Source: Bacteroidota bacterium (GTDB lineage: Bacteria > Bacteroidota > Bacteroidia > Chitinophagales > Chitinophagaceae). From it: a DNA stretch of 64,000 nucleotides. The stretch is taken from the NCBI GenBank assembly GCA_040387955.1, contig JAZKCS010000002.1, forward strand, positions 506,582 to 570,581, in the 5' to 3' direction. The position numbers and the translations under genes were made by a program. This document shows, piece by piece, positions 3,000 through 22,479 of the stretch (positions are counted from its first letter, which is position 1; each line of letters opens with the position of its first letter). The notes beneath the pieces were generated by a model. It saw only the letters and a list, made by a program, of their open reading frames with translations, searched no databases and was not told the DNA's origin.

Positions 3000-3014
3000 T
3001 GGCACCATCATTGT
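3000..3014 (+). promoter_or_regulatory. sigma54-like -24/-12 type element TGGCACcatcaTTGT
   Basis: The GG lies 60 nt upstream of the ATG of the REC gene. It shares the extended TTGTATTTTATT with the site at 18379. Confidence 0.5.
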
Positions 3015-3060
3015 ATTTTATTGATAAAGTAATTATTTGTAATTTTTAAGAATAGAGGAG

Positions 3061-3432
3061 ATGAAAAAGAGAATAGTAGTTTTAGACGATGACGATTCAA
3101 TACAAGACCTTTTGAGGATGATATTCGAAAGAGCCGGTTATGAAGTTATTTCTGAATCTGACCCTGAAGATGTTTTGAAAGGATATAAAGACTTACCTGA
3201 TATATATTTGTTAGATCGTCAATTAGCAGGAGCAGATGGTCTCGTTTTATGCGATCAATTAAAACATTCCCCCACTACTCAACATATTCCAGTTATTATG
3301 GTTTCGGCTTCGCCGGATATTGGTGTTCTTTCAAAATTAGCAGGCGCAAATGATTATATTGAAAAACCTTTTAGGGTAAATCATTTATTAAATGTTGTTG
3401 AGCATCAAATTGAAAAGAGCCATTATCACTAA
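3061..3432 (+). CDS. single-domain response regulator (receiver domain only)
   Basis: CheY-like features are present: DDDD acidic pocket, phospho-acceptor in YLLDRQL, MVSAS, and EKPF. It has no output domain. Confidence 0.9.
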   Translation: MKKRIVVLDDDDSIQDLLRMIFERAGYEVISESDPEDVLKGYKDLPDIYLLDRQLAGADGLVLCDQLKHSPTTQHIPVIMVSASPDIGVLSKLAGANDYIEKPFRVNHLLNVVEHQIEKSHYH

Positions 3433-3485
3433 TTTTTTGAAAAAAAATCCCTCAATTTTTTACAAGATTTTAATTCCATTTATTA

Positions 3486-3500
3486 AGGCACGCCAATTGA
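3486..3500 (+). promoter_or_regulatory. sigma54-like element aGGCACgccaaTTGA
   Basis: The GG lies 43 nt upstream of the ATG at 3530 (small ORF plus ligD operon). Confidence 0.5.
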
Positions 3501-3529
3501 TATATTTTTTTTAATTAAAATTATTATTT

Positions 3530-3715
3530 ATGACAAAAAAAATGCTCTTGGCATCTGCCATCCTATCTACAGGATTGGGATACCTACTCTATTCAAAATG
3601 GAGAAAAAGTAATAGCAACCAACAAAGTGAAGGCGAAGGAGATATGAAAATGGAACGTGCAAAAAAGAACAGGCACGTTGGTAACTTTCCAAAACCTGCA
3701 ACATTAGCTGGTTAA
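3530..3715 (+). CDS. small hypothetical membrane protein (one predicted TM helix)
   Basis: This 61-aa ORF has a hydrophobic N-terminal helix (LLASAILSTGLGYLLY). Its stop abuts the ligD start, and the promoter-like element is correctly placed upstream. Confidence 0.45.
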   Translation: MTKKMLLASAILSTGLGYLLYSKWRKSNSNQQSEGEGDMKMERAKKNRHVGNFPKPATLAG

Positions 3716-6409
3716 TTGATTATGGGATTAGCTAAATATAAAAGCAAAAGAAATTTCAACGAATCCCCCGAGCCAATGGGAGGCAAAGCAGATAGTGATA
3801 AACTTAGGTTTGTCATTCAAAAGCATGATGCCTCCCATTTGCATTATGATTTTAGGCTGGAAATGGAAGGTGTTTTAAAAAGTTGGGCTGTGCCTAAAGG
3901 GCCATCAACTGATCCCACCGTTAAGCGTCTTGCAATGATGGTGGAAGATCATCCATTTGATTACAGAAATTTTGAAGGAGTTATACCAAGCGGTTATGGT
4001 GCTGGTACTGTCATCGTTTGGGACGAAGGTTTTTATGAACCTGCAGAAAAAACATCAGACGATAAAAAGATGCAGGATAAAGATCTAAGAAGACAATTAC
4101 ATTCGGGTAAATTAAAGATCGTATTAAAAGGAAAAAAACTAAAAGGAGAATATGCGTTGGTGAAAGCTCACGGACGAGGAGAAAATGGATGGCTGTTATT
4201 TAAAGTGAATGATAAATATGCATCTTCAGATGATATTACAAAAAAAGAAAAATCGGTGATCTCTAAAAAGACATTGGCACAAATAGAAAAAAATCCCAGC
4301 AATATTTACGGATCAAAAAAAATAAAAGCAGATAGCTCTTCCAAAAAAAAAGAACCAGTAAAAAAAGAACCAGTAAAGAAAAAATCAGTTGAGGTTAAAA
4401 AAAAAATTACTGATTCTGAAGATCTATTGAAGTCTGCACCTACCTCAAAATTTATTACAAACCTTCAGCCTATGCTGGCTACTTTAGTTGATAAACCTTT
4501 TTCCGAAGAAGGCTGGCTGTATGAAGTAAAATGGGATGGTTATAGGGCTGTAGGATTTATCAATAAAGGAAAGATTGAATTAAAATCACGTAATGATAAA
4601 TCATTCAATGAAAAATTTTATCCTGTAACAAAGGCGTTGAAAGATTGGGGTATCAATGCAATTGTTGATGGAGAGGTAGTTGTGTTAAATGAGAATGGTG
4701 TATCGGATTTTGGTGCGTTACAAAACTGGAGAAGCGAAGCAGATGGGGAATTGTTTTATTATGTATTTGATATTATGTGGCTCGATGGTAAAGACCTTAC
4801 ACAGGTTCCTTTAAAAGATCGGAGAAAAATTCTGGAAGAACAAATTCCTGGTAACGGCATTATTAAACTTAGTCAAACATTTGAAACATCAGGCATTGAT
4901 TTTTTTGAAGCTGCAAAAAAAAATGGCTTGGAGGGAATTATTGCTAAAAATGCCAATAGTCAATATATAATAGGTAACCGTTCAAAAGAATGGCTTAAAA
5001 TAAAAGCGAATAAGAGACAGGAAATGGTGATTGGCGGTTATACAAAAAATGATGACACCAGTAAACTTTTCAGTGCTTTACTTGCCGGGGTATATGATGA
5101 TGGTAAATTAATTTATACAGGAAAAATTGGGACAGGGTTTAATGATAAAATGCAAAAAGAGATGATGGCAAAGTTCAAAAAACTTGTTATTAAACATCCC
5201 CCATTTACTGAGTTACCTGATATTAATAAACCATCACGGTTCAGGCCTAATCCCCCTCGTGCCACTGCTACATGGCTTAAACCTGTATTGGTATGCGAAG
5301 TAAGTTTCACAGAAATGACCACAGATGGTATTATGCGTCATCCTTCATTTGAAGGAATGCGAATAGATAAAAATGCAAAAGATGTTATCATGGAAAAAGT
5401 TAAGCCGGTAAAAAAAACAGTTAAGGAAGCCGATATGCTTAGTAAAAAAAAGGCGATCACCCCTACAGCAAAAAGTGAAAGAAAAACATTTTTAAATCCT
5501 ACTGATGAAACGCAGGTAAGAAAAATAAATGGACACGAATTAAAGTTTACCAATCTTAGTAAAATATATTGGCCTAAAGAAAAAATTACGAAAAGAGATC
5601 TGTTGAATTATTATTACCAGGCAGCTCCTTACATTTTACCATATCTTAAAGAGCGGCCACAATCTATGTTGCGTCATCCTAACGGTATTAATGGCGAAAG
5701 TTTTTTCTTTAAAGATATTACCGGCAAGGCGCCTGGTTGGTTAGACACATTTCTTTATCATAGCGAAGCGGACGACAGAGATAGAAATTACCTGGTAGCT
5801 AAAGACGACGCAAGTTTATTATATATGGCAAATCTTGGATGCATAGAAATGAATCCATGGCATAGCAAGGTTAAAACAGAAGACTTTCCCGATTGGTGCA
5901 TTATAGATCTTGATCCGGCAAAAAATACTTTTGACCAGGTAATTGAAGCGGCACAAGTAACGCATGAGATATTAAAAAGCATGGGCATTGATTGTTATCC
6001 AAAAACAAGCGGCTCTACAGGTATGCATGTATATATTCCTTTGGGGGCAAAATATACTTATGAGCAATCAAAAGAGTTTGCAAGAGTAATAGCAAGATTA
6101 GTACATGAAGCCTTACCAAAATTTACAAGTATTGAACGGACTGTAAAAGATCGCAAAGGAAAAATGTATATTGATTTTTTGCAGAATAGGGCACAAGCAA
6201 CTGTTTCGGCGCCATATTCTGTAAGACCCAAACCCGGCGCAACTGTATCAATGCCCCTTGATTGGAGCGAAGTAAAAAAAGGTTTAAAAATGTCCGACTT
6301 TACAATTCATAATGCTATTGAAAGAATAAAGTCTGAAGGAGATATTTTTAAACCTGTACTTGGAAAAGGGGTTAATCTAAAAAAGATCATTGCTGATATG
6401 GAAAAATAA
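3716..6409 (+). CDS. ligD: ATP-dependent DNA ligase LigD, three-domain form (3'-phosphoesterase - ligase - primase/polymerase)
   Basis: It has a PE domain (RFVIQKHDASHLHYDFRLE..WAVPKGPS), the ligase adenylation motif EVKWDGYR, and a C-terminal LigD polymerase domain (FFFKD.., YIDFLQN). The ORF-track start is TTG at 3716, and an ATG at 3722 is an alternative. Confidence 0.95.
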   Translation: MIMGLAKYKSKRNFNESPEPMGGKADSDKLRFVIQKHDASHLHYDFRLEMEGVLKSWAVPKGPSTDPTVKRLAMMVEDHPFDYRNFEGVIPSGYGAGTVIVWDEGFYEPAEKTSDDKKMQDKDLRRQLHSGKLKIVLKGKKLKGEYALVKAHGRGENGWLLFKVNDKYASSDDITKKEKSVISKKTLAQIEKNPSNIYGSKKIKADSSSKKKEPVKKEPVKKKSVEVKKKITDSEDLLKSAPTSKFITNLQPMLATLVDKPFSEEGWLYEVKWDGYRAVGFINKGKIELKSRNDKSFNEKFYPVTKALKDWGINAIVDGEVVVLNENGVSDFGALQNWRSEADGELFYYVFDIMWLDGKDLTQVPLKDRRKILEEQIPGNGIIKLSQTFETSGIDFFEAAKKNGLEGIIAKNANSQYIIGNRSKEWLKIKANKRQEMVIGGYTKNDDTSKLFSALLAGVYDDGKLIYTGKIGTGFNDKMQKEMMAKFKKLVIKHPPFTELPDINKPSRFRPNPPRATATWLKPVLVCEVSFTEMTTDGIMRHPSFEGMRIDKNAKDVIMEKVKPVKKTVKEADMLSKKKAITPTAKSERKTFLNPTDETQVRKINGHELKFTNLSKIYWPKEKITKRDLLNYYYQAAPYILPYLKERPQSMLRHPNGINGESFFFKDITGKAPGWLDTFLYHSEADDRDRNYLVAKDDASLLYMANLGCIEMNPWHSKVKTEDFPDWCIIDLDPAKNTFDQVIEAAQVTHEILKSMGIDCYPKTSGSTGMHVYIPLGAKYTYEQSKEFARVIARLVHEALPKFTSIERTVKDRKGKMYIDFLQNRAQATVSAPYSVRPKPGATVSMPLDWSEVKKGLKMSDFTIHNAIERIKSEGDIFKPVLGKGVNLKKIIADMEK

Positions 6410-6410
6410 C

Positions 6411-6590
6411 TTACTCTTTGTTCAGATAAGCGCTTACATCATCCACCGAAGTTCCTGCCACAACCACAGCATCAATTAACTTTTCTTTGCTTACATTAAA
6501 ATGAGTACACCAATAATCTAATTCCCAATCTTCATGAATATTAACCCTTTTTGCATCCTGTGGTTTGATTTCTTTTAAATTGTCGCTCAT
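6411..6590 (-). CDS. DUF3606 domain-containing protein (59 aa, below the ORF-track cutoff)
   Basis: My own translation of the minus strand gives MSDNLKEIKPQDAKRVNIHEDWELDYWCTHFNVSKEKLIDAVVVAGTSVDDVSAYLNKE. This matches the DUF3606 pattern (I..E.E..YW...F.VS...L..AV...G.S...V..YL). Confidence 0.75.
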   Translation of the reverse strand: MSDNLKEIKPQDAKRVNIHEDWELDYWCTHFNVSKEKLIDAVVVAGTSVDDVSAYLNKE

Positions 6591-6615
6591 AACATTATAT
6601 TTTATGAGTAGTAAA

Positions 6616-6630
6616 ACAATTAATGCGCCA
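6616..6630 (-). promoter_or_regulatory. sigma54-like element TGGCGCattaaTTGT
   Basis: The GG lies 39 nt upstream of the DUF3606 ATG (6590). Confidence 0.45.
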
Positions 6631-6638
6631 AACCATTT

Positions 6639-6836
6639 CTATTGTATTTTTTTAAAAGGAAAATTATTTTTAATGAACTTGTTTAGGAATTCGCCTTTTG
6701 AAAAAGCCGACTGCATTTCTTTATAAATATTTTCAGGAACATTTAAGTAGTCATATATAGCTCCCGAAAGAAAAATGATCCTCAATATTTTTTTATCTAT
6801 ATTATAGATCATTTTTGATATTACTGTAGAGGGCAT
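6639..6836 (-). CDS. KTSC domain-containing protein
   Basis: The segment LRIIFLSGAIYDYLNVPENIYKEMQSAFSKGEFLNKFIKNNFPF matches the KTSC fold signature. I place the start at MPSTV (6836) because the promoter-like element occupies 6863-6877. Confidence 0.75.
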   Translation of the reverse strand: MPSTVISKMIYNIDKKILRIIFLSGAIYDYLNVPENIYKEMQSAFSKGEFLNKFIKNNFPFKKIQ

Positions 6837-6862: not shown

Positions 6863-6877
6863 TCAATAATTATGCCT
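6863..6877 (-). promoter_or_regulatory. sigma54-like element aGGCATaattaTTGA
   Basis: The GG lies 40 nt upstream of ATG 6836 (KTSC gene). Confidence 0.5.
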
Positions 6878-7147: not shown

Positions 7148-7230
7148 TTTTAACCAGTCTACTGTAGATTTTATTCCACACTCTTATACGTTTGTATTTC
7201 ACAGAATTACGCTGGTTCTATCTTTTGGGT

Positions 7231-7245
7231 TGGCATATTTGTTGT
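7231..7245 (+). promoter_or_regulatory. sigma54-like element TGGCATatttgTTGT
   Basis: It lies 156 nt upstream of the TonB-receptor ATG. This is the longest leader of the set, so I am less certain of it. Confidence 0.35.
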
Positions 7246-7387: not shown

Positions 7388-9499
7388 ATGCGAAGGATAT
7401 TTTTTTCCTTAACTCTTTTGCTTTCATCGTTTTCAGTAATCGCTCAAACAGATACTGTTCCTGGCGTTAATAATCTTTTACAATTGTCTCTGGAGGAATT
7501 GATGAATATACAAGTAGTAACAGCCTCAGGATATTTACAAACAACTGCAGAAGCCCCATCTACCATTACTCTTATTACTGAACAAAAAATTGCAGAACGA
7601 GGCTATGAACAATTAGAAGATGCCTTAAGAGATGTGCCGGGTATTGACATGATACATATTAACGGTTATGCTCCTACATTGGTTTATTTCAGAGGGATGT
7701 ATGGTGCTGAAAATCAACGGGCATTATTAATGATCGATGGAATTGGCGAAAACAATATCATTGGAAGTAATGATATGGCTGGTCCTGCATATAGCTTGCA
7801 TAATGTTGAGCGTATTGAAATTATTTGGGGCCCGGCATCTGCTTTATATGGCGCTAATGCTTTTGGTGGCGTGATCAATATCATTACCAAAAAAGGTGCA
7901 GATATTAATGGAGTACAGGTTAAACGAGGATTTGGGAGCTTCAATACTTCCTTCGGTAATTTATTACTTGGAGTAAAAAAATCAAACTTCGAGTTTACTG
8001 CAGGAGCTTCTTTATATAGTACTGATGGTCCAAAATTCACTAATAGAGACCCGCAATATTCGGCATCTTATTTTGATAAAGCATATTCTTTGAATACTTC
8101 ATTGAGTTATTATGGAAAGAGAGCAAAAACAACATTAGGTTTCCGTACATACAAAACCCCTTCTGGTTGGGGAACTTATGCAAATAGCCCCACAGCTTAT
8201 CTAGGCCTTCCTCCACAGGGCAATGGCAATGTAGGTCTTGTTGGTGTTTTACAAAGAGATATTCGTGGGGAAAGGTCGGGGTTGATAGATTCTTATTTAC
8301 GCACAGTATTTCTTCAAAATGAATTTGCGGTAAATAAAAAATTGAACATCTTCAGCCGCATTGTTTATCGTCAAACTGGTACAGGAGATGATTCTTACGT
8401 ATATATTACGCTTGATTCAACAAAATTATACAGGGCTATCGTAGCTTCTTTTTCAAATCGTATATCAGGAGAAGTTTCTGCAAACTATACAATAAACGAA
8501 GATCAACGATTGACCGCAGGAATGCAGTTCTATCAAGATAATGTAGAACAAGGATCTCGTATGGCTACTTTTGATCCTACAGTTCATCTGCTCGATGGCA
8601 AAGATACATTGCTTAATTTGGGTGCAACTTTTCTAACAAGAAAATATGATATCAGAAATAATTTTGGCAGCTATTTACAATATATCTTAAATACAAAATT
8701 GTTGACGAAAACAAGTTTTACTGCAGGTATCCGCTATGATTACAACAGTTATTTTAAAAGTGCGGTTAGTCCAAGAATAGTAATTGTAAACAATCCAAAT
8801 GATAAACTAACATTAAAGCTGCAATTTGGTATGGCGTTCAGAGCCCCTACTAACCTCGAGATACATCAAACAGGATTAAATTTTAAGCTTACTACGGAAA
8901 AAATAAAGACATATGAGGTGAATGCCATCTATGCTTTTTCAAAAGCTGTTCGCCTTCAGCTAAATGGTTTTAGAAATATATTGACAGATGTTATCATTCT
9001 TGGTAATCTTTCAGGATTTAATCCCGATAAAAACCCGGGCATCTTTAAAATTACTGGAGTGGAGACTAATTTGGACATGGAAATTAAGAAAAACCTGACC
9101 GGCTTTTTTAATTTTACTTATCAGTATCCATGGGGAAAAAATCTTGTTAGCGGAAATAGTGGCCAACTACCCGGTGTTGCAAGAATAAAAGCAAATGCAG
9201 GTATTTCTGTTCAAGTTGCTGATCTGTTTACGTTCAGCATCTTAGAAAATCATATTGGGAAAAGAGGATCTCCAAGAACAAACCCTTACGGACCAGTGAA
9301 AGGATATTATCTTACGAACTGTACATTGAGCACAGCTGAATTATTTAACAAAGGAGTTACAGTAAGTTTAAGCGTACGTAATTTGTTTGATACAAAATGG
9401 CTTGACCCTGGCTTCAGAACAGCAGATGGGCTTTTATATTCAACCGTATTAGAACAACCAGGTATAAATGGATTATTTAAAATAGGCATTAAGCTTTAG
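7388..9499 (+). CDS. TonB-dependent receptor (plug plus beta-barrel)
   Basis: It has a signal peptide, plug-domain motifs (IERIEIIWGPASALYGANAFGGVINIITKK), and a long beta-barrel ending in an aromatic-rich strand. Confidence 0.9.
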   Translation: MRRIFFSLTLLLSSFSVIAQTDTVPGVNNLLQLSLEELMNIQVVTASGYLQTTAEAPSTITLITEQKIAERGYEQLEDALRDVPGIDMIHINGYAPTLVYFRGMYGAENQRALLMIDGIGENNIIGSNDMAGPAYSLHNVERIEIIWGPASALYGANAFGGVINIITKKGADINGVQVKRGFGSFNTSFGNLLLGVKKSNFEFTAGASLYSTDGPKFTNRDPQYSASYFDKAYSLNTSLSYYGKRAKTTLGFRTYKTPSGWGTYANSPTAYLGLPPQGNGNVGLVGVLQRDIRGERSGLIDSYLRTVFLQNEFAVNKKLNIFSRIVYRQTGTGDDSYVYITLDSTKLYRAIVASFSNRISGEVSANYTINEDQRLTAGMQFYQDNVEQGSRMATFDPTVHLLDGKDTLLNLGATFLTRKYDIRNNFGSYLQYILNTKLLTKTSFTAGIRYDYNSYFKSAVSPRIVIVNNPNDKLTLKLQFGMAFRAPTNLEIHQTGLNFKLTTEKIKTYEVNAIYAFSKAVRLQLNGFRNILTDVIILGNLSGFNPDKNPGIFKITGVETNLDMEIKKNLTGFFNFTYQYPWGKNLVSGNSGQLPGVARIKANAGISVQVADLFTFSILENHIGKRGSPRTNPYGPVKGYYLTNCTLSTAELFNKGVTVSLSVRNLFDTKWLDPGFRTADGLLYSTVLEQPGINGLFKIGIKL

Positions 9500-9531
9500 T
9501 CTTACCCTTGGCCAATGCTAAACCTTATAAT

Positions 9532-10041
9532 ATGTTGTTAAAAAGATTTTTATTTTTTGTAATGATAGCGTTTCTTAGCGGAACCGCATCGGCACAAAAT
9601 ATTGAGGCAGAGGCCAATCTTAAAGCAGTGTTCATTTACAATTTTACCAAATACGTAGAATGGGATACAAACAATGGCGATTTCGTTATTGGAGTTATTG
9701 GCCAGTCTTCTGTTACTTCCGCACTAAATATAATTGCAAGAAACAATACTGTTAAAAATAAAAAAATTGTCATAAAGGTCTTTAACAAACCTGAGGATAT
9801 TGAGTATTGCAATATTCTTTTTATTCCAAAGAACAGTTTCTCTTTATCATCAATTTTAGAAAAAACAGGCAAGGGTACCCTTACAGTAAGTGAAGAAAAC
9901 GGGTATGCAAAAAAAGGAACCGCATTCAATTTTGTAATTGTAAATAACAAATTAAAATTTGAAGCAAACTTAAAAGCTTTATATCTGGCAGACCTGAAAG
10001 CGGGCTCACAATTACTTAAACTCGGAATCATTGTTGATTAA
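9532..10041 (+). CDS. YfiR-family (DUF4154) periplasmic protein
   Basis: It has a signal peptide and then LKAVFIYNFTKYVEWD, the hallmark of DUF4154/YfiR. I take the ATG at 9532. Confidence 0.8.
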   Translation: MLLKRFLFFVMIAFLSGTASAQNIEAEANLKAVFIYNFTKYVEWDTNNGDFVIGVIGQSSVTSALNIIARNNTVKNKKIVIKVFNKPEDIEYCNILFIPKNSFSLSSILEKTGKGTLTVSEENGYAKKGTAFNFVIVNNKLKFEANLKALYLADLKAGSQLLKLGIIVD

Positions 10042-10056
10042 CAGCGCTAAATTAAT

Positions 10057-11457
10057 ATGTTGGTTAAATTAAGTGACATATCGATAAGGAATAAACTTGT
10101 GCTAATGCAAATGTTTACCAGCGTTTTGGTATTAAGCATTGTGTTTGCGGTTTTTGTTATTACGGATATCAACTCTTATAAAGAACGTAAAGTAAAAAGC
10201 GTTAAAAGTATTGCACAGGTTGTGGGTACTAATAGCATCTCTACTTTACAATTTCAGGATGAAGATGCAGCAAAAGAAATCTTATCTGAGCTTCATAATG
10301 TTGCTCCTGAAATTATTAATGCTGCAATATTAGATAAAAATGGAAATTTATTTGCAAGCTATAACAGGCCGGGGTCAGACACTTTTATAATCCCTTCAAA
10401 TAAAAATGTAGGAAGTTCCACATTCCATGATCATAGTTTATTAGTAAATAATCCCATTGTAAATGAGAATGAAATCATTGGAAATGTATTTTTAAATGTA
10501 GAGTTAAATGAATTACAGCAGATAAAAAAATCGAAGTATGAAATTACTGCTGTCTTATTGATAGTGGCGCTGGGTTTTTCATTTTTAATAGGAGCAGCTG
10601 TTCAACCTTATATTTCAAAACGTTTATTACGACTTTTGAAAACAATGAATGAAGTAACGGAAAGTGGCGACTATAGTAAAAAAATTTCCGATGATGGTAA
10701 GGATGAGATAAGCGTTCTAATAAAAGTATATAATAACCTGATGTTACAGGTAAGGAAAAATCAACAGAAAAAAGACGAATTCATTGGTATTGCAAGCCAT
10801 GAATTTAAGACGCCATTAACAAGTATTAAAGGATATTTGGATCTGCTTGACCTGATGGAAAATGATGAGGGAAAAAAACAATTAGTAGGCAAGGCGCAAC
10901 GGAATGTGAACAAACTGGAAGTATTGATAAAAGATCTGCTAGATGTTTCAAAAATTCAGAGTGGACAACTGGAGTTGAACATGCAAAGGTTTAATATTGA
11001 TGAATTGATCAAAGAGACTATTGCAGCATTTCAAATGTTATCACCAACCCATCATCTTATTTTAAAAAATACAAGCGGAGAAGCATTTGTATACGCTGAT
11101 AAACAAAGGATTGAACAGGTGTTGATCAATCTATTATCAAATGCTATAAAATATTCTCCGGGAGAAAAAGAGGTGATCATCAGCTACGAAAAAAATGATA
11201 CGGACATGATCATTAAAATAACAGATTTTGGCATAGGAATAGCGGAAGAAGAGCGATTGAATATTTTTGAAAGATTTTATCGTACAAAAGATATATCTGT
11301 TCACATTTCAGGATTTGGGTTGGGGTTATATATTTGCAGAGATATAATTAAAAGGCATAATGGGAAAATATGGGTTGAAACACAAGGAAAAGGGTCTTCT
11401 TTTTATTTTACTTTACCTCTAAAAACAAAGGAGCCTGTGTTACAACAAAAAGTATAA
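10057..11457 (+). CDS. sensor histidine kinase with CHASE8-like periplasmic domain, HAMP, HisKA and HATPase_c
   Basis: Two TM segments flank a roughly 130-aa sensor (IAQVVGTNSISTLQFQDEDAAKEILSEL..). It has the H-box ASHEFKTPLTSI, N-box LLSNAIKYS, G1 DFGIGI and G2 GFGLGL. Confidence 0.9.
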   Translation: MLVKLSDISIRNKLVLMQMFTSVLVLSIVFAVFVITDINSYKERKVKSVKSIAQVVGTNSISTLQFQDEDAAKEILSELHNVAPEIINAAILDKNGNLFASYNRPGSDTFIIPSNKNVGSSTFHDHSLLVNNPIVNENEIIGNVFLNVELNELQQIKKSKYEITAVLLIVALGFSFLIGAAVQPYISKRLLRLLKTMNEVTESGDYSKKISDDGKDEISVLIKVYNNLMLQVRKNQQKKDEFIGIASHEFKTPLTSIKGYLDLLDLMENDEGKKQLVGKAQRNVNKLEVLIKDLLDVSKIQSGQLELNMQRFNIDELIKETIAAFQMLSPTHHLILKNTSGEAFVYADKQRIEQVLINLLSNAIKYSPGEKEVIISYEKNDTDMIIKITDFGIGIAEEERLNIFERFYRTKDISVHISGFGLGLYICRDIIKRHNGKIWVETQGKGSSFYFTLPLKTKEPVLQQKV

Positions 11458-11489
11458 AAAAACGTTTAAAATTTATATTCTAAGAATTA

Positions 11490-12571: not shown

Positions 12572-12709
12572 GCATCAATAATATTTAAAGATTTTTATTT
12601 AGCATAATTCTCTACGTCTTATTCCTTAATTATTAAATAGTTGTGGAATTTTTTTCACTTTTTCTACACAAAAATAGCCTTATAATACAATTTTCAGGCT
12701 TATTACAGA

Positions 12710-12724
12710 TGGTACTGTTTTTGA
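12710..12724 (+). promoter_or_regulatory. sigma54-like element, variant TGGTACtgtttTTGA
   Basis: The GG lies 56 nt upstream of ATG 12767. The -24 half deviates from the other copies (T for C). Confidence 0.35.
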
Positions 12725-14232: not shown

Positions 14233-14443
14233 GTAGATTATTTTAGGGGTGCTATATAAAGTTGGTTTAAACAGAAATACTTAAATGTCAAATTCTTATG
14301 AAGATCGTTCTTACAAAATTATTGGGTAATTGCTTACACAGTGTGGGGTGATTGTAAACCAAATCTTTAAAAAATAAGGATTTTAAAAAGCTATATAACT
14401 ATCTAAATATTAATAAATAAGCCTTATCAGCTATAAGAATTAT

Positions 14444-14458
14444 TGGCATAATATTTTT
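14444..14458 (+). promoter_or_regulatory. sigma54-like element TGGCATaatatTTTT
   Basis: The GG lies 39 nt upstream of ATG 14484. It overlaps the ORF-track TTG start at 14460, which argues for the shorter CDS. Confidence 0.45.
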
Positions 14459-14483: not shown

Positions 14484-15029
14484 ATGCGAAATCCTATCTA
14501 CAACAAAAAACATGTAACTGAATATATCATATATGGACTATTAAGTTCATTCGCATATATAATAGTGGTTGATTATTTTTTATACAATAACAAGTATGAA
14601 AATTTTTATTACGTATATCTTGGTAACCTCCTATTTATGTTCGGTATTCTTCTTTATGTGGTGCGTTTATTAAATCGTCCATATGATGGCAAAAGTGCTG
14701 GTACAATGATGATAGCGGGAATTATGGCCACATTAACAGGTATTGTATTATCCTGTATACTTATCCTTATAAGTATGTTGTTTTTCTTTCCAGATCTATT
14801 TAGTGCAGTTGCTCAAAATAAAGTAATTGAAAATGCTCCGGAAACAATTCAGGCAAAAAGACCTGGTGAACTCTTACTGATGCTGTTATTAAATGCTATT
14901 ATTGCCAACTTTGGTGTAGGAGCATTTATTTCTGTAGTTGTTGCATATGCCGGTAAAAAAGATCAACGAAAAGATAGAACAGAAAGCCTTGACCTGAATG
15001 TTCCAAACAGAAAAGTAAAAGCTCAATAA
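14484..15029 (+). CDS. hypothetical integral membrane protein (about 4 TM segments)
   Basis: It contains several long hydrophobic stretches. I choose the start at MRNPIYNKK. Confidence 0.6.
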   Translation: MRNPIYNKKHVTEYIIYGLLSSFAYIIVVDYFLYNNKYENFYYVYLGNLLFMFGILLYVVRLLNRPYDGKSAGTMMIAGIMATLTGIVLSCILILISMLFFFPDLFSAVAQNKVIENAPETIQAKRPGELLLMLLLNAIIANFGVGAFISVVVAYAGKKDQRKDRTESLDLNVPNRKVKAQ

Positions 15030-15602
15030 TTATCTTTTAACATTCAATTTACCCATAATACTTTTTACACTCGCCTGTATTTCACCTTCCGTCAGGCGTG
15101 TGTAATTCAATTCATTGGTTGTCCATCCCTGCCACACATTTTTGTCAGTGGACGCATCGATCATTGTAATGGTTATTGTTCCTTCTTTGATGGCTACATC
15201 ATAATTATCATAGCCTAAAAATTGTGAAGGATAATAAATTGTATTCCATGAACCTGTACGCCTACTGTAATACATTCTTGTAAAAGGTTGAGAATAAACA
15301 GGATCAGAACGTTGGATCCTTTGGCGTTCTACAAGTACATCATAACTTATCAGCAGATCAGGATTGTCCTTAACTTCTCTAAACCCAGCTTTCGACAATT
15401 CTTCATTCGCTGCATTTCTTACCGGAATATCTGCATACATGGCAGGCCGTTGAAGACTGTCATTTTCACTTGACTTTGTATCTATCCACATATAAGTATG
15501 GTAATTAGAAAGATTTACAGAATTGTCTTTTTGTACATGTACTGAACTGGCGCAGGCTGTTAAAAGCAAAGCTACAATTACACTATAGATTATATTTTTC
15601 AT
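15030..15602 (-). CDS. DUF4136-like lipoprotein
   Basis: The lipobox LLTACASS and overall pattern are typical of DUF4136. Confidence 0.65.
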   Translation of the reverse strand: MKNIIYSVIVALLLTACASSVHVQKDNSVNLSNYHTYMWIDTKSSENDSLQRPAMYADIPVRNAANEELSKAGFREVKDNPDLLISYDVLVERQRIQRSDPVYSQPFTRMYYSRRTGSWNTIYYPSQFLGYDNYDVAIKEGTITITMIDASTDKNVWQGWTTNELNYTRLTEGEIQASVKSIMGKLNVKR

Positions 15603-15622: not shown

Positions 15623-15638
15623 TGCAAATAATATTCCA
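15623..15638 (-). promoter_or_regulatory. weak sigma54-like candidate TGGAATattatTTGCA
   Basis: It has canonical GG-N10-GC spacing and a TTGCA -12 half. The -24 half is degenerate. The GG lies 35 nt from ATG 15602. Confidence 0.25.
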
Positions 15639-16758: not shown

Positions 16759-17535
16759 TTAAGATGCTTTTTTATTTTTTGTACTCAAACTTGCTTTTAA
16801 TTGTGCCATCAGATCAGTTCCTTTGCTATGCACTACTCTTAAATGTGTAGCAACAGGTTTTGCCCCTTTCGCTTTTGACTTAATGATCTTTAAAAGCTGA
16901 TCAGTATATGTGTCTTTGTATTGATTGATATTAAATTTTCCAGCAAGTTGATTGATCAATGAGACGGCCATTTTTAATTCGGCAGGCTTTATAGCTGTTT
17001 TACCAGGTAAATCAAGATCTTTTGTATCTCTGATCTCTTGTGCAAAACGTATCCTGTTTAAAATAATAACATCTTTTGTAGCTCTTAAAATTGCAAGTAT
17101 TTCTTTGTTACGCATTACAAACGTGGCAATACCCACCTTACCTGTTTTTAACAAAGATTCCCTTAACAATGCATATGCTCTTGAGCCGGATTTGTCAGGG
17201 GCTAAATAATAAGGGGCTTCAAAAAAAACGCTATCAATATCACTTTCATTTACAAATTCGGTAATATCAATTTGCTTGGTTTTGATAGCGTTTGCGGCTT
17301 CAAAATCTTTATCTTCCAGTATAACATATTTATCCTTAAGGCGATACCCTTTAACAATATTTTCCCAGGCTACTTCTTTTCCTGTTTTTTCATTTACCCT
17401 CATAAAACGAATATGTGAATGATCTTTTTTATCCAACATATCAAGGTCAAGGTTGCTCTCTTCTGTAGCGCTAAAAAGTTTTACCGGGATATTCACCAAA
17501 CCAAAAGCGATTGAACCGGTCCATATTGCTCTCAT
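16759..17535 (-). CDS. ku: non-homologous end-joining protein Ku
   Basis: It starts with [23 protein letters not shown], the canonical bacterial Ku N-terminus, and has a basic C-terminal tail. Confidence 0.95.
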
Positions 17536-17568: not shown

Positions 17569-17583
17569 GAAAGTATTATGCCG
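17569..17583 (-). promoter_or_regulatory. sigma54-like element cGGCATaatacTTTC
   Basis: The GG lies 47 nt upstream of the ku ATG (17535). Confidence 0.4.
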
Positions 17584-17690
17584 ACTTTTTTATACTGATA
17601 ATATCATTAAAGGAGAAAATGCTTCTACATTGTACAAAATATTACACAAGCATTTTTTCATAAACAATACGTTTTAAACCGAGTACGTTT

Positions 17691-17705
17691 TGGCATAGTA
17701 TTCTT
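17691..17705 (+). promoter_or_regulatory. sigma54-like element TGGCATagtatTCTT
   Basis: The GG lies 57 nt upstream of ATG 17749. It is divergent from the ku promoter candidate. Confidence 0.4.
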
Positions 17706-17748: not shown

Positions 17749-18225
17749 ATGAATACTACCGTAACAGAAGAATTGATTGAGGTTTTAAATGACCTTATCA
17801 AGATCAATAATGATCGTATTGAAGGATATGAAAAAGCAAGAGATGAGATCAGGGACAGAGATGTAGATCTGCAAGGCATATTTGGAAAAATGGCTGATGA
17901 TAGCAGACGCTACGTTGGCGAATTAACACAACACATTCAATCTCATGGAGGCGAAACTGCAAAGGGCACAACCGGCCTTGGTAAAATTTACAGGGCATGG
18001 ATGGATGTTAAAACAACCTTTACAGGTAAAGACAGAACTGGTGTATTGGAGTTATGTGAATATGGAGAAGATGCTGCTCAAAAAGCTTACAACGATGCAC
18101 TTTCATCTGATGCGGAAATGGATGCAGAAACCCGTCAATTGATCACTTCTCAAAAAACATTTTTAAAAGAATCACATGATATGATCAAAAGATATAGAGA
18201 TATCAGTAGATCAACATCATCTTAA
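17749..18225 (+). CDS. PA2169-family four-helix-bundle (DUF2383, ferritin-like) protein
   Basis: The segment LNDLIKINNDRIEGYEKA plus CEYGEDAAQKAY are typical of the PA2169 family. Confidence 0.85.
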   Translation: MNTTVTEELIEVLNDLIKINNDRIEGYEKARDEIRDRDVDLQGIFGKMADDSRRYVGELTQHIQSHGGETAKGTTGLGKIYRAWMDVKTTFTGKDRTGVLELCEYGEDAAQKAYNDALSSDAEMDAETRQLITSQKTFLKESHDMIKRYRDISRSTSS

Positions 18226-18278: not shown

Positions 18279-18378
18279 GATGAATATAATACCCATTGAA
18301 CTGTTGTGATGCTAAAACATTGAGAAAAAAAATCCCATCATTTTTAATTCTGAGTTAAATTATCAATTAATTATGCGA

Positions 18379-18393
18379 TGGCACATATTTTGT
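18379..18393 (+). promoter_or_regulatory. sigma54-like element TGGCACatattTTGT (orphan, no ORF downstream)
   Basis: This is among the best matches of the set. Its extended identity TTGTATTTTATT is shared with site 3000. Confidence 0.5.
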
Positions 18394-18404
18394 ATTTTAT
18401 TTAA

Positions 18405-18588
18405 TTCAAATTCTCGATAAAGAAAGTTCAGCGAAACAGCTTCGAGGAAATATTTAACTTTAGTTAGATAAGTAATCATAGCATATTCAAAGAACGATCT
18501 GTGTTTCCGATCTGAATAACTTCAAAGAGGAAAACACAATAGAGAATACAAAGGGGTTTTGGCATTACGCTAAAACCCTTATTTTTTC
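18405..18588 (+). ncRNA. candidate small RNA (about 180 nt) bounded by the promoter-like element and an intrinsic terminator
   Basis: There is no ATG on the + strand between 18394 and 18588, and GTG/TTG frames are 5 codons or fewer. The 5' end is inferred from -12 geometry, and the 3' end is the terminator at 18553-18588. Confidence 0.4.
18553..18588 (+). terminator. intrinsic terminator with no protein gene upstream
   Basis: The stem is GGGGTTTT-loop-AAAACCC, followed by TTATTTTTT. Confidence 0.65.
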
Positions 18589-18722
18589 AAACTCTTTTCC
18601 TTGTGTCAATTTTTCAGAATAAAATTATTTTTCCATTCTTTATTACTGAATACAGAACAACCGATAAAAATTTTCATATAAAATATTTCTATTGATAGTA
18701 AGCAAAAACAACTCCGTATTTA

Positions 18723-18737
18723 ATGGCTTAGAGTTTG
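18723..18737 (+). promoter_or_regulatory. sigma54-like element, variant TGGCTTagagtTTGT
   Basis: The GG lies 37 nt upstream of ATG 18761 (Fpg/Nei). Confidence 0.4.
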
Positions 18738-18760
18738 TTTTAAATTAGAAAAATTTAATA

Positions 18761-19498
18761 ATGCCTGAAGGTCCCTCCATTGTTATTGCAAAGGAATTGC
18801 TACAAAAGTTTAAAAGAAAAAAAATTATAAGTGCCACTGGGAATGCCAAAATAAATATGGATATCCTGGCCAATCAAAAGATCATCTCAATCAGATCCTG
18901 GGGAAAACACCTATTGATCTGCCTTCCTGCCTTAACTATTAGGATTCATTTTTTAATGTTTGGTTCATATAGCATTGATGAAAACACAAAGCAGCAAAGA
19001 AGCATTCGCTTGTGCTTAAATTTTGCAAAACACAAGATATATTTTTATACCTGTTCTGTTAAGTTGATAGAAGGAAATATCAACGATACATATGATTGGT
19101 CATCAGATATAATGAATGACGATTGGGATGCAAAAAAAGCATTGAAAAAAATAAAAGAATTAGACAACGAATACATTTGCGATGTGTTACTTAACCAGGA
19201 AATATTTGCAGGCGTTGGAAATATTATTAAAAACGAGGTATTGTACAGAGTAAAGATCCACCCTGAAAGCATTGCTTCGAAAATTCCAACTCGTCAATTA
19301 AATCTTATTATTAAGGAAGCTCGTAATTATAGCTTTGACTTTTTAAAATGGAAAAAAGAATTCGTTTTGAAAAAGCATTGGTTGGCACACACAAAAAAGA
19401 CATGTCTTCGATGTGATCTCCCATTAATAAAAAAGTATTGTGGAACTACTAAGCGAAGAACTTTTTTTTGCAATAAGTGCCAACTATTATACAAATAA
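18761..19498 (+). CDS. Fpg/Nei-family DNA glycosylase / AP lyase
   Basis: It has the N-terminal MPEGPSI (catalytic Pro2/Glu3), an H2TH region (GVGNIIKNEVLYRVKIHP), and a C-terminal CxxC...CxxC zinc finger. Confidence 0.85.
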   Translation: MPEGPSIVIAKELLQKFKRKKIISATGNAKINMDILANQKIISIRSWGKHLLICLPALTIRIHFLMFGSYSIDENTKQQRSIRLCLNFAKHKIYFYTCSVKLIEGNINDTYDWSSDIMNDDWDAKKALKKIKELDNEYICDVLLNQEIFAGVGNIIKNEVLYRVKIHPESIASKIPTRQLNLIIKEARNYSFDFLKWKKEFVLKKHWLAHTKKTCLRCDLPLIKKYCGTTKRRTFFCNKCQLLYK

Positions 19499-19777: not shown

Positions 19778-21313
19778 TTATTCTTTCATTTTCTCCTCTA
19801 GATCTATTTTTTCAAGATCTTTTCTTGCAGGTGCTGTCAACACTCTGCCATCAATTGAAAATCTGGAACCATGGCAAGGACAATCCCACGATCTTTCGGT
19901 GGCATTCCAGCTAACTGTGCAATTGATATGTGTACAGGCGGAATTCAATGCATGTAATACATGGTTCTCATCTTTGTACAAAGCCAATGTATGCCCTTCA
20001 AACTTTACAACCTTTGCTTCTCCTGCGGCTAAATCTGTAAGTTGTTTAATTTTTGCAGAAGAAAATTTTCCTCCGATTAAATTGGCTACTACATCTGCAG
20101 CTTCTTTTACAAAATTGCTAAATCCTGCTATAGGTTTTAACCTGCTTGGATCAAAAAGATTTTGATATACACTTTCTCCATTTACAAGAATGTTACTGAA
20201 AATAATAGCAGACAAAGTTCCGTATATCATTCCATTACCACCAAAGCCTGTTGCAACATAAATGTTATCACTGGTACCGGGAAGTTTTCCGATGTATGGC
20301 AATCCATCAGCAGGTTCAAAATATTGAGATGACCATTTGTATGCAACTTCTTTTACATTGAAATAACTTTTTGCATGACTTTCTAATCTTCTAAAACATG
20401 CATCGGTATTTTCTTCATGACCTGTTTTGTGATCTTCGCCACCTACTATCAAATAATATTCATCATCTACTTTTTGAGTTCTGTAATAATGATAAGGATC
20501 AAACATGTCATACGCTAAAGCTTGAGGATATTTATCATCTTTTAATTTAACAGCCATTGCATAACTTCTATAAGGGGCACACCTGAAATGCAATAGGTTA
20601 ACTCCCGGGGGAATATGTGTGGCATATATTACATTGTTAGCACGAAAAACACCTCTGGAAGTTTCAATGCGTAAAGCATCTTTTTCATTTGTAATGTTTG
20701 TTACTTTATGTTGCTGGCAAATACATCCTCCCAGATCTTCAAAAGCTTTGGCTAACGCAAAAATGTATTTAATAGGATTGAATTGTGCCTGGTGGGCAAA
20801 CGTAGCACATTTTAAGTATGGAATATCTACAGGTAAATTGTTGCAATACTCCACATCAACACGTAATGTTTTGGCAGCGTCCACTATTTCATCTAACTCT
20901 TTATCTTGTTTTTCATTGGTTGAAAAAAGATATCCTTCGAGTTCGGAAAATTCACAATCAATATCATATTGATGTATATTTTGTTTGATAAGTGCAATAG
21001 CAGCAGCCGCTCCTTTAGATAAAAGTTTTGCTTTTTCAAGCCCAAAATCTTTTATTACTTTATTATAAGGAGTATCAAAAAAAGTATTCAAATGAGCAGT
21101 AGTGCCACCTGTTGTACCAAATCCTATACTATGTGATTCTGCAAGTAAACATTTTTTTCCTGCATGTTGAAGCAATAAAGCTGTTGTTAGCCCGGTTATT
21201 CCCCCACCAACAATGATCACATCATAAATAAAATTATGATCCACATTTCCTATTGAAACATAGTTGTCAACGTTTTTTTGCCAGAGGCTTTTATTAGCAC
21301 CATCTCTTTCCAT
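19778..21313 (-). CDS. FAD-dependent oxidoreductase fused to a C-terminal Rieske [2Fe-2S] domain
   Basis: It has the dinucleotide fold DVIIVGGGITGLTTA and Rieske ligands CTHINC...CPCHGSRF. Confidence 0.85.
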   Translation of the reverse strand: MERDGANKSLWQKNVDNYVSIGNVDHNFIYDVIIVGGGITGLTTALLLQHAGKKCLLAESHSIGFGTTGGTTAHLNTFFDTPYNKVIKDFGLEKAKLLSKGAAAAIALIKQNIHQYDIDCEFSELEGYLFSTNEKQDKELDEIVDAAKTLRVDVEYCNNLPVDIPYLKCATFAHQAQFNPIKYIFALAKAFEDLGGCICQQHKVTNITNEKDALRIETSRGVFRANNVIYATHIPPGVNLLHFRCAPYRSYAMAVKLKDDKYPQALAYDMFDPYHYYRTQKVDDEYYLIVGGEDHKTGHEENTDACFRRLESHAKSYFNVKEVAYKWSSQYFEPADGLPYIGKLPGTSDNIYVATGFGGNGMIYGTLSAIIFSNILVNGESVYQNLFDPSRLKPIAGFSNFVKEAADVVANLIGGKFSSAKIKQLTDLAAGEAKVVKFEGHTLALYKDENHVLHALNSACTHINCTVSWNATERSWDCPCHGSRFSIDGRVLTAPARKDLEKIDLEEKMKE

Positions 21314-21339: not shown

Positions 21340-21354
21340 AAAAAAATTGTGCCA
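21340..21354 (-). promoter_or_regulatory. sigma54-like element TGGCACaatttTTTT
   Basis: The GG lies 40 nt upstream of ATG 21313. Confidence 0.45.
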
Positions 21355-21448
21355 CAGTAAAAATGATAAAGACTTCATTTTTTATAGCTACATTGGATCG
21401 TAACAGAATTAATAAGTTCAGTAATGATGATATAATGTGGATTTTTAT

Positions 21449-21982
21449 CTACAAAAAATAACTTTGATCTTTTACACTCTTTAAAAAATTTTCTTCTTTA
21501 AAATTTTTGAGCATTTTGGCAAGATCTTCTAATACGGCATTTGTATAAAAAAGCTGAACATCCAATGCTTTATTTTCAGGAGCTGTAATTGTTACGTTCT
21601 TTATTTTTTGTTTCCTAAAAGCTATAGAATAACAAGCGTATAGTCCGGTGGATTTGTGATTAGGCAGGAGAGTGGCATAGCCTGTTATGCCAATACCCCA
21701 CACTGATGAAAAAAGTGTGCAAACGTTCTTAGCCATTTCTTCAGCAATACCTTCAGAAACACAATTGCATCCAATTGCCTTTGTAGGATTTATATGCAGG
21801 TGAGTATATTTCTGGAATATATTATAAGTAGTAATTCCTCCCTGGAAAAAAGCTGAAGCTTCATCTGCCAGCGAGAAAGCGACTTGTAGGTGGCCACTGG
21901 TAACACTTTCTGCAACAGCAATGGTTTGCTTATGTGCTATCATGAAATTTTTTATCGACTCAATATTATCAATGCTATACAT
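21449..21982 (-). CDS. CinA-family (PncC-like NMN amidohydrolase domain) protein
   Basis: The segment IAVAESVTSGHLQ corresponds to the ESCTGG motif region. Its size and the remaining motifs are consistent with this family. Confidence 0.7.
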   Translation of the reverse strand: MYSIDNIESIKNFMIAHKQTIAVAESVTSGHLQVAFSLADEASAFFQGGITTYNIFQKYTHLHINPTKAIGCNCVSEGIAEEMAKNVCTLFSSVWGIGITGYATLLPNHKSTGLYACYSIAFRKQKIKNVTITAPENKALDVQLFYTNAVLEDLAKMLKNFKEENFLKSVKDQSYFL

Positions 21983-22023
21983 ACCTGGATCTTCCCTTAT
22001 TAATATTGATGAGGATCTTTAGT

Positions 22024-22059
22024 AAAAGAAAAACGCTATACATTTATTTATATAGCGCC
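22024..22059 (-). terminator. intrinsic terminator of the acidic-protein gene
   Basis: The stem is CGCTATA / TATAGCG, followed by TTTTTCTTTT on the minus strand. Confidence 0.6.
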
Positions 22060-22075
22060 TTTTCTTTTTTAATTT

Positions 22076-22426
22076 TTACATTTTTGGAGTTTCACGAATT
22101 GTTTTTTCGGAATCATCATCTTCTCCGGGCAATACATCTTCAGCTTCGTCCATGTCATCATCATCATCTTCATCATCTTCGTCATCATCAGTATCTTCAT
22201 CATCGTCAGTTCCTGAATCATCTCTATTGCCTTCGTCAAATCCTTTTTCTTTTCCTTCATCAGTATCTTTATCATATTCTTCAGCATCACCTGGATTAAC
22301 TATATCAGTTTGTTCTTCTTCATTAACAATGTTTTCATCAACTCCGTTAACTGCTGTGTGTGGATGATTCGGATTTTCCTGATTCCAATCAGCATTTGAT
22401 TGGGTCAAATTATTTACTTGTGTCAT
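22076..22426 (-). CDS. hyper-acidic hypothetical protein (low complexity, likely disordered)
   Basis: By my count 47 of 116 residues are D/E and only 7 are K/R. It has its own promoter-like element and terminator. The other two frames give His-rich and Ser-rich artefact ORFs. Confidence 0.6.
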   Translation of the reverse strand: MTQVNNLTQSNADWNQENPNHPHTAVNGVDENIVNEEEQTDIVNPGDAEEYDKDTDEGKEKGFDEGNRDDSGTDDDEDTDDDEDDEDDDDDMDEAEDVLPGEDDDSEKTIRETPKM

Positions 22427-22464
22427 AAAATCAAATATTTTTAATTATAAATAAATAGAATAAA

Positions 22465-22479
22465 ACAATAGTCATGCCT
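22465..22479 (-). promoter_or_regulatory. sigma54-like element aGGCATgactaTTGT
   Basis: The GG lies 52 nt upstream of ATG 22426. Confidence 0.45.

Follow-up and report, generated by a model that had tools for sequence, protein, structure and literature searches.

What controls the genes of a DNA-repair and stress cluster in a bacterium of the family Chitinophagaceae (Bacteroidota) is the question raised by the stretch of DNA analyzed here, a window of 64,000 nucleotides (nt) from contig JAZKCS010000002.1. Between 3.0 and 22.5 kb of the window, a sequence-only reading had listed 13 copies of a short bipartite element, GGCAY-N5-TTG(T/A), in front of successive transcription units, and had proposed that these sigma-54-like promoters govern one regulon for non-homologous end joining (NHEJ) and general stress. 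Our analysis supports that proposal through conservation, geometry, an upstream palindrome and activator genes. Accordingly worded, the copies are probably activator-dependent sigma-54 (-24/-12) promoters with a degenerate -12 element, driving an NHEJ and general-stress regulon; the support for this reading is computational throughout.

Copies of the element in the window

All 13 strings were located in the window on the strands that had been given for them. Twelve coordinates were exact, and the copy before the Fpg/Nei gene starts at 18724 rather than 18723. Copies on the minus strand are named by the coordinate of their 5' end. The GG pair, described as invariant, is present in 13/13 copies. 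Taken in the order 3000, 3486, 6630, 6877, 7231, 12710, 14444, 17583, 17691, 18379, 18724, 21354 and 22479, the first G (G1) lies 60, 43, 39, 40, 156, 56, 39, 47, 57, (381), 36, 40 and 52 nt from the start codon, the value in brackets belonging to an orphan copy with no open reading frame (ORF) downstream. In 11 of the 12 protein-coding cases the distance is thus 36-60 nt, five copies falling at 39-43 nt, in line with the sequence-only reading. The gene content of the window and of its relatives was assigned with Pfam, which bore out the gene labels. These comprise a REC gene (3061-3432), LigD (3722-6409) with fused phosphoesterase, ligase and polymerase domains, DUF3606, KTSC and VF530 proteins, an operon of TonB-receptor, YfiR-like, CHASE8 histidine kinase and REC genes, an AraC/HMA protein, a SET-domain protein, DUF4136, SDR, Ku (16759-17535, minus strand), DUF2383 (PA2169 family), Fpg/Nei, DUF6496, an FAD/Rieske oxidoreductase and CinA.

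The loosest form of the pattern matches at 123 places in the window, and therefore weak single copies cannot be justified by the pattern alone. With one mismatch allowed, the consensus was not enriched in the whole window (20 matches vs 18.5 expected). GGCAY-N5-TTG occurred 10 times vs 4.1 expected, a modest enrichment whose count was reached in 1 of 100 shuffles. The 10% of the window that is intergenic holds 12 GGCAY motifs, of which eight carry TT at +11/+12 and ten lie within 3-22.5 kb.

To avoid circular reasoning, we trained a promoter matrix on relatives, using expectation-maximization refinement with the window excluded. For this, 80 ku-centred loci were fetched from other Chitinophagaceae (Ferruginibacter, Ginsengibacter, Hanamia, Puia, Segetibacter and others), whose Ku proteins are 66-74% identical to that of the window. 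The closest Ku among 185,579 species-representative genomes is only 74% identical, and two proteins of the window had no exact match in a second collection; the window appears to come from a Chitinophagaceae species that neither collection represents. When both strands of the window were scanned with this matrix (128,000 positions), sites of the sequence-only reading took ranks 1-5, 8, 10 and 11; sites 3487, 12711, 7232 and 3001 (scan coordinates) ranked between 22 and 44, and site 6629 ranked 105. At a cut-off of at least 10 bits, which was used for all family and window tallies, a match lies 25-100 nt upstream of 10/17 operon-leading genes inside 3-22.5 kb but of 0/27 elsewhere in the window (Fisher p = 8e-6). 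In this context, the set of copies is highly non-random. A dispersed repeat or miniature inverted-repeat transposable element was considered and rejected, as the sites fall in no repeat family. Further consensus-like sites in the window, at 33399, 37724 and 42321, are within coding regions.

The element in relatives and its upstream palindrome

Counts over the 80 loci together with the window (1.34 Mb, of which 1.18 Mb is coding) revealed a strongly directional element. Intergenic matches to GGCAY-N5-TT[T/G] point toward the next gene in 110 cases and away from it in 9, and the coding DNA contains 276 matches. The distance from G1 to the ATG peaks at 40-49 nt (51/110 copies). Among 815 upstream regions, the five most strand-biased 5-mers were GCATA, GGCAT, CATAA, TGGCA and GGCAC.

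We then considered the anatomy of the element on 243 GGCA-anchored sites situated 30-75 nt upstream of genes. Information beyond the anchor is confined to T11 (72%), T12 (63%), [T/G]13, [C/A]14, A6 and A7. A second block of the -35/-10 type was sought from -29 to +30, where the columns were flat and no such block was found; a bipartite -35/-10 promoter was rejected on the grounds that there is no second block within 30 nt on either side. The only second block lies one helical turn downstream of GG, which agrees with the fixed spacing and sigma-54-like -24/-12 geometry that had been proposed. When the spacing was widened to N6, the oriented count dropped from 110 to 23. The refined consensus of the loci matrix reads a-n-T-G-G-C-A-T-A-a-t-n-t-T-T-[T/G]-[A/C], with G1 at 96%, G2 at 100%, C3 at 80%, A4 at 88%, Y5 at 78%, T11 at 90%, T12 at 82% and T0 at 57-61%. 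Written for the copies in general, the consensus is a-n-[T/A]-GGCA-T-A-a-n-n-n-TT-[T/G]-[C/A]. It matches TGGCAY-N5-TTGC in identity and spacing except at G13 and C14.

The element had also been described as distinct from the Bacteroidota sigmaA promoter, and this distinction held. The TAnnTTTG box accompanies 6/170 (4%) of the promoters with the motif, compared with 105/520 (20%) of the leading genes without it, and it is absent upstream of all motif-led genes in the window. Therefore, the element takes the place of the housekeeping promoter and is not an addition to it.

When dyads were sought in the DNA preceding the promoters, GGAA-N4-TTCC proved to be enriched 12-fold, with the extended form TGnGGAA-N4-TTCCnCA. 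Matches of at least 10 bits to the palindrome matrix were found 25-200 nt upstream of 82/200 promoters (41%) vs 21/598 control regions (3.5%). Across the 1.34 Mb, 74/136 palindrome matches occur in the zone 40-160 nt upstream of promoters, which accounts for 1.7% of the sequence (p ~6e-93). Each promoter has one palindrome, and the distances from its centre to G1 cluster at 50-52, 59-61, 69-72, 80-81, 92-93 and 100-111 nt. Their periodicity is ~10.5-11 bp (Rayleigh R = 0.39-0.40, 59 non-redundant values). With G1 at a predicted position of about -25, the palindromes would be placed at about -75 to -135, where the sites of enhancer-binding proteins lie. Both members of divergent promoter pairs have one palindrome in common, in relatives and at the ku/DUF2383 pair of the window. 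By relaxed matching, 7 of the 14 palindromes in the window lie 52-171 nt upstream of the listed sites; four reach 10.8-11.8 bits, three of them at exactly 60 nt from G1.

A search of orthologous clusters showed that the element is kept before the same gene families in ~80 other species. Among operon-leading genes of the loci, a match of at least 10 bits precedes Ku in 35/51 cases, where the promoter reads aaaGGCAYAAnAnTTTCtata and stands 38-49 nt before the ATG, as well as YtxH (16/17), DUF892 (YciF-like; 12/19), DUF2383 (9/11), TamB (9/10), SDR (8/15), topoisomerase IB (7/17), pyridoxamine-oxidase-like (8/17), Fpg (5/5), JmjC/cupin-8 (5/6) and CHASE3 kinase (5/5) genes. The same tally is 0/14 for MMPL, 0/40 for operon-internal LigD and likewise 0 for several housekeeping families. 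Of the 81 sequences, 73 have one or more such promoters, the window being the richest with 10. The proposed regulon, for double-strand-break repair, base-excision repair and general stress protection, would comprise in the window ku, ligD, Fpg/Nei, KTSC, DUF2383, a regulator and a sensory operon, and probably DUF3606 through a weak copy; in relatives it would also take in topoisomerase IB, YtxH, DUF892/YciF, TamB and JmjC-like genes. Its content is like that of a classical general stress regulon to which NHEJ has been added.

The promoters come in two flavours. AGGCA...TTTC heads ku, topoisomerase IB, SDR and TamB units, TGGCA...TT[T/G]A heads genes of small stress proteins, and the palindrome is common to both. 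Fully canonical TGGCAN-N5-TTGC or CTGC sites, such as TGGCAGataaaTTGCA and TGGCATgattgCTGCA, are found mainly before REC-only and CHASE3-kinase genes of relatives. Considering that these canonical sites are present in the same clusters, sigma-54 appears to be in use there. Orthology of the window's REC gene with the REC genes that have canonical TTGC promoters found no support, the identity being only 23-40%. A third form, GGCAGGRTTTTAG, replaces GGCATAATACTTTC before ku in five of the loci (L002, L003, L025, L026 and L055), ~39-53 nt before the ATG; its T-run is ~2-3 nt nearer to GG, which does not fit the fixed sigma-54 spacing.

Sigma-54 promoters weighed against other readings

Sigma-54-interaction AAA+ domains were found 15 times in 13/80 of the relatives' clusters (PF00158 E-values ~1e-65). 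The proteins consist of REC, Sigma54_activat (PF00158), AAA lid and HTH_8 domains with a GAFTGA or GSFTGA loop, and form two orthologous groups. In four loci (L022, L032, L044 and L053), the activator gene ends a motif-led string of YtxH, a holin-like protein, two more genes, REC and the activator; in L009 it comes after a YihY gene that is itself motif-led, and L055 has two activators, each with a copy of the element 100-160 nt upstream. CHASE3, PAS and hybrid histidine kinases as well as REC-only proteins are encoded beside the activators in these clusters. Against NCBIfam models, the activators gave generic AtoC/NtrC/ZraR-like scores only, all below cut-offs.

We favour the sigma-54 reading because the consensus fits save for two columns, the sigmaA box is excluded, a phased dyad is attached, and sigma-54 activators are the sole dedicated regulators that recur in the clusters. 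Under this reading, sigma-54 RNA polymerase would form a closed complex on the GG at -24 and on the T-rich element at -12. Histidine kinases would relay a stress signal to a response-regulator ATPase of the NtrC family, which would bind the single palindrome TGnGGAA-N4-TTCCnCA (candidate target TGTGGAATTATTTCCTCA), situated ~75-135 bp before the start site and always on the same side of the helix. Remodelling of the polymerase by the activator would then allow transcription to start ~24-26 nt past the first G, leaving leaders of 11-35 nt, and feedback may arise where activator and receiver genes stand behind the same promoter type. We infer sigma-54 binding, binding of the activator to the palindrome, the start positions and stress as the inducer from these arrangements. 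A weak -12 element is expected to lower the stability of the closed complex and to make output lean on a close, correctly phased activator, and this expectation matches the short, phased palindrome distances.

Several results weigh against this reading. The GC that defines a -12 element is mostly absent, with G13 at 37% and C14 at 36% in the matrix. Of 202 promoters, 19 (9%) carry both G13 and C14, 60 carry C14 only (mostly TTTC) and 51 carry G13 only (TTGA, TTGT), so that 55% have one of the two, and 72 (36%) carry neither; among the window copies, G13 is present in 9/13, C14 alone in 1/13 and both in 0/13. The earlier caveat that the -12 C is usually T or A therefore stands, and is stronger than had been stated. 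The palindrome accompanies 2/19 of the canonical GC-bearing copies compared with 41/59 of the TTTC copies, so the two sets may be under different activators, or may even be recognized by different factors; the canonical copies, mostly without a palindrome, hint at a hierarchy of regulation or at a second activator. A convincing palindrome is present at only about 4-5 of the 13 window copies, and no covariation of its sequence with the two activator groups was seen. The palindrome is also Crp/Fnr-like, and its phasing fits class-I activation of a sigma-70-type promoter equally well. Finally, there is no activator gene in the 64-kb window, and no rpoN (RpoN-box protein) in the window or in any of the 80 loci. 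The concern that an enhancer-binding protein is missing, raised by the sequence-only reading, is thus true of the window, but is largely answered by the NtrC-type activators in 13/80 relatives and by the phased palindrome. The intact GAFTGA activators in turn suggest that rpoN is present.

How do other readings fare with the same data? That the 13 copies are chance matches of a loose pattern in AT-rich intergenic DNA is barely credible. The 123 loosest-form matches and the unenriched one-mismatch consensus would suit such a view, but the orientation bias, the distance peak, the family-wise conservation across species, the top ranks under an independently trained matrix and the Fisher test in the window refute it for the set as a whole; chance could still account for copy 6630 and, less likely, for copies 3000 and 3486. 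A more serious alternative, although an unlikely one by our estimate, is that an alternative sigma factor of the sigma-70 family reads the element as a -10-like or extended -10 box (TGgCATAAT), with the palindrome as a Crp/Fnr-type class-I site. TGGCATAAT resembles TGnTATAAT. The CRP site is TGTGA-N6-TCACA, and the palindrome, written TGTGGA-N6-TCCACA, resembles it; moreover, a start ~12-15 nt after G1 would put palindromes at 50, 60, 71, 81 and 92 nt near class-I positions, and the missing -12 GC would present no difficulty. However, position 8 would be the -7 T, normally the best-conserved base of a -10 box, yet T is found there in only 50-56% of copies, with free variation among the ku promoters, whereas A4 reaches 88%; on this basis the extended -10 box was rejected. 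The invariant GG, T11 and T12 would also go unexplained, no -35 element is present, and the regulators in the clusters are of the NtrC type.

Less probable still is that the element is not itself a promoter but the operator of an ordinary transcription factor on conventional sigmaA promoters. Short conserved motifs before co-regulated genes are often factor-binding sites, and the spacer AAnAn of the ku type is more conserved than is usual in sigma-54 promoters. An operator would not be expected to be asymmetric, co-oriented (110 vs 9) and confined to 36-60 nt; in addition, the sigmaA -7 box is depleted (4% vs 20%), no other promoter-like block is conserved nearby, and a separate palindrome already occupies the role of a regulator site. 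The fixed orientation and distance to the start codon would also fit an element acting in RNA, as a 5'-leader motif for a protein or small RNA with transcription starting further upstream. We consider this very improbable, given that no promoter is visible upstream, that the upstream intergenic space is sometimes only ~10-50 nt (e.g. 6590-6639), that no structure or covariation is evident, and that the orphan copy 18379 has no ORF to regulate and yet is followed by a terminator.

The sigma-54 reading places the element among known systems of sigma-54 promoters and NtrC-family activators such as glnAp2/NtrC and pspA/PspF. The likeness includes the invariant GG, the T-rich element one helical turn on, the TGGCAY first half, a single dyad that precedes the predicted start by 75-135 bp, genes for REC-AAA+(GAFTGA)-HTH_8 activators in the clusters and possible autoregulation. 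In contrast to known sigma-54 promoters, the -12 GC is found in 9%, TTTC, TTTA and TTGA are preferred, and C5 is usually T; whereas tandem sites are typical of NtrC, there is one upstream site per promoter here. The upstream activator sequence of the NifA type is TGT-N10-ACA. The palindrome shares its TGT...ACA outer bases and, under the present reading, would likewise be bound by an HTH_8-type activator upstream of a sigma-54 promoter, but the spacing here is TGT-N12-ACA. Bacteroidota sigmaA promoters (-33 TTTG / -7 TAnnTTTG) occupy the same place, the start codon following within some tens of nt, with a different sequence and geometry, and are close to mutually exclusive with the element. 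Promoters of the EcfG type read GGAAC-N16-17-CGTT. EcfG is an extracytoplasmic function sigma factor controlled by PhyR/NepR partner switching, unlike the -24/-12 layout and the ATPase activator proposed here. The likeness lies in the regulon: EcfG (RpoE2) of Alphaproteobacteria likewise joins NHEJ and small general-stress proteins under an alternative sigma factor with two-component input, and ku and ligD of S. meliloti belong to the EcfG general stress regulon (PMC6379672). Within the same phylum and with the same idea of sigma-54 controlling stress genes, a 2025 cross-phylum scan predicts sigma-54 promoters at Bacteroidota heat-shock genes (PMC12316311). That scan used consensus matrices TGGCAC-N5-7-TTGCT, its authors state that deviating promoters are missed, and Chitinophagia, Ku and LigD are unmentioned in it.

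A full-text literature search returned no description of a degenerate -12 promoter set or of an NHEJ, base-excision-repair and stress regulon under sigma-54 in Bacteroidota, and the control of NHEJ or of general stress protection in Bacteroidota is not described in the literature searched. The mechanism would thus be of a known kind, and the degenerate -12 set and the regulon content are new as far as the searched literature shows. Tentatively, and with somewhat more doubt than confidence, we suggest that general stress and dormancy in Chitinophagaceae, and perhaps widely in environmental Bacteroidota, may be run by sigma-54 with one dedicated NtrC-type activator instead of a sigma-70-family factor, with the -12 GC largely lost; its reach would extend to NHEJ and base-excision repair, to topoisomerase IB and to one or more small RNAs. 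In a sharper version, the degenerate -12 class would be read by a second, specialized RpoN paralogue. If the favoured reading is confirmed, sigma-54 can fill the role that sigmaS, sigmaB or EcfG has elsewhere, and functional sigma-54 promoter sets can drift far from the -12 GC. Because of such drift, genome scans based on the consensus would systematically miss these promoters, a limitation acknowledged in PMC12316311. The promoter matrix, the activator site and the candidate activators would provide a testable regulatory code with which to define the stress regulon of a large, ecologically important and mostly uncultured group of soil and freshwater bacteria. The motif also flags uncharacterized small proteins and a candidate small RNA as stress effectors.

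Individual copies and a candidate small RNA

We regard copies 6877, 14444, 17583, 17691, 18379, 18724, 21354 and 22479 as strong, copies 7231, 12710 and 3000 as likely, being backed by a palindrome or an orthologue, copy 3486 as plausible and copy 6630 as doubtful. Usable homologues of the DUF3606, KTSC, small-ORF, acidic-protein and membrane-protein genes were not found in the 80 loci.

Starting from the left of the cluster, TGGCACcatcaTTGT (3000..3014, plus strand) lies 60 nt before the REC gene (3061-3432) and scores 10.0 bits (rank 44). It is moderately supported, with a candidate activator site, TCTGGCACATTTTCCACA (2821..2838; 10.8 bits), 171 nt upstream; palindromes are given without a strand. 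aGGCACgccaaTTGA (3486..3500, plus strand; 11.3 bits, rank 22) stands 43 nt before a small ORF (3530-3715) that is followed by ligD (3722-6409), and has a half-palindrome, AAAAAAATCCCTCA, upstream of it at 3441-3463. The repeated string AAAAAAATCCC(N)TCA is present at 3441-3463 and 18326-18348, ~45-53 nt upstream of copies 3486 and 18379, and resembles the palindrome half TTCCnCA. LigD of the window is a single fusion of 895 residues (phosphoesterase, ligase, polymerase) encoded in its own unit away from ku, whereas most relatives have, directly behind ku, a LigD_N phosphoesterase gene of its own and next to it ligD, often with a topoisomerase IB gene in front of ku; the window lacks this bacterial topoisomerase IB gene.

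The two following copies are on the minus strand. The weak copy TGGCGCattaaTTGT (6616..6630) lies 39 nt before the DUF3606 gene (6411-6590) and scores 7.9 bits (rank 105); it begins TGGCGC, and its position and orientation are what speak for it. aGGCATaattaTTGA (6863..6877; 17.0 bits, rank 2) lies 40 nt before the KTSC gene (6639-6836) and overlaps the divergent VF530 gene at its first codons. On the plus strand, TGGCATatttgTTGT (7231..7245; 10.1 bits) is 156 nt before the operon of TonB-receptor, YfiR-like, CHASE8 kinase and REC genes (7388-11855), and the centre of a candidate activator site, TGTAGATTTTATTCCACA (7163..7180; 11.8 bits), is 60 nt upstream. The same distance of 60 nt separates the centre of TGTGGAATTTTTTTCACT (12642..12659; 11.6 bits), also a candidate activator site, from TGGTACtgtttTTGA (12710..12724, plus strand; 10.9 bits), which stands 56 nt before the AraC/HMA gene (12767-13339). 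The orthologue of this gene in L025 has a 15.8-bit copy at ~59 nt.

The highest-ranking copy in the window is TGGCATaatatTTTT (14444..14458, plus strand; 17.4 bits, rank 1), 39 nt before a membrane-protein gene (14484-15029), with a weaker candidate activator site, TGGGTAATTGCTTACACA (14323..14340; 7.3 bits), 113 nt upstream. An extra copy, TGGAATattatTTGC (15624..15638, minus strand; 13.2 bits, rank 7), absent from the sequence-only reading, lies 35 nt before the DUF4136 gene (15030-15602); it has the canonical TTGC at -12 but GGAA where the others have GGCA. The copy of the ku operon, cGGCATaatacTTTC (17569..17583, minus strand; 15.2 bits, rank 3), is 47 nt before ku (16759-17535), which is followed by SDR and further genes. 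Divergent from it, TGGCATagtatTCTT (17691..17705, plus strand; 12.5 bits) is 57 nt before the DUF2383/PA2169-family gene (17749-18225), whose orthologues carry the element in 9/11 cases. Between these two promoters lies a diverged palindrome, TGTACAAAATATTACACA (17631..17648), with 3 mismatches and a score of 2.5 bits, at 57 and 52 nt from the two.

The orphan copy, TGGCACatattTTGT (18379..18393, plus strand; 14.5 bits, rank 4), has no plus-strand ORF of at least 40 codons behind it. An intrinsic terminator with a 12-bp stem is present at 18552-18580, followed by a T-run. From the predicted start at G1+24 to the terminator and T-run, the interval 18404..18590 on the plus strand would yield a non-coding RNA of ~185 nt, and the predicted 187-nt transcript folds at -47.2 kcal/mol (z = -5.5). 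Rfam gave no match in the window, including the region behind the orphan copy, and no homologue of the RNA was found in the 80 loci. Based on the terminator and the fold, 18404-18590 is a candidate stress-induced small RNA.

Further to the right, TGGCTTagagtTTGT (18724..18738, plus strand; 12.2 bits) is 36 nt before the Fpg/Nei gene (18761-19498), and orthologues carry the element in 5/5 cases. TGGCACaatttTTTT (21340..21354, minus strand; 14.0 bits, rank 5) lies 40 nt before the FAD/Rieske oxidoreductase gene (19778-21313), with a weak palindrome, TGTGGATTTTTATCTACA (21436..21453; 4.9 bits), 91 nt upstream. aGGCATgactaTTGT (22465..22479, minus strand; 13.0 bits, rank 8) is 52 nt before the acidic-protein gene (22076-22426), and the centre of the candidate activator site TTGGGAAAAAATTGCCCG (22530..22547; 11.6 bits) is 60 nt upstream of it. 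Within the acidic-protein gene, a run of internal repeats at 22134-22302 (minus strand) with a spacing of 9-15 nt is rich in GAT/GAA on the coding strand and represents a low-complexity Asp/Glu tract.

Outside the cluster, two consensus-grade sigma-54-like sites lie in the 3' ends of ORFs. TGGCACctttgTTGC (33385-33399, minus strand) precedes a pterin-4a-carbinolamine dehydratase gene by 102 nt; in Pseudomonas, the phh operon depends on sigma-54 and PhhR. aGGCATatatgTTGC (42321-42335, plus strand) is 71 nt before an epimerase-like gene.

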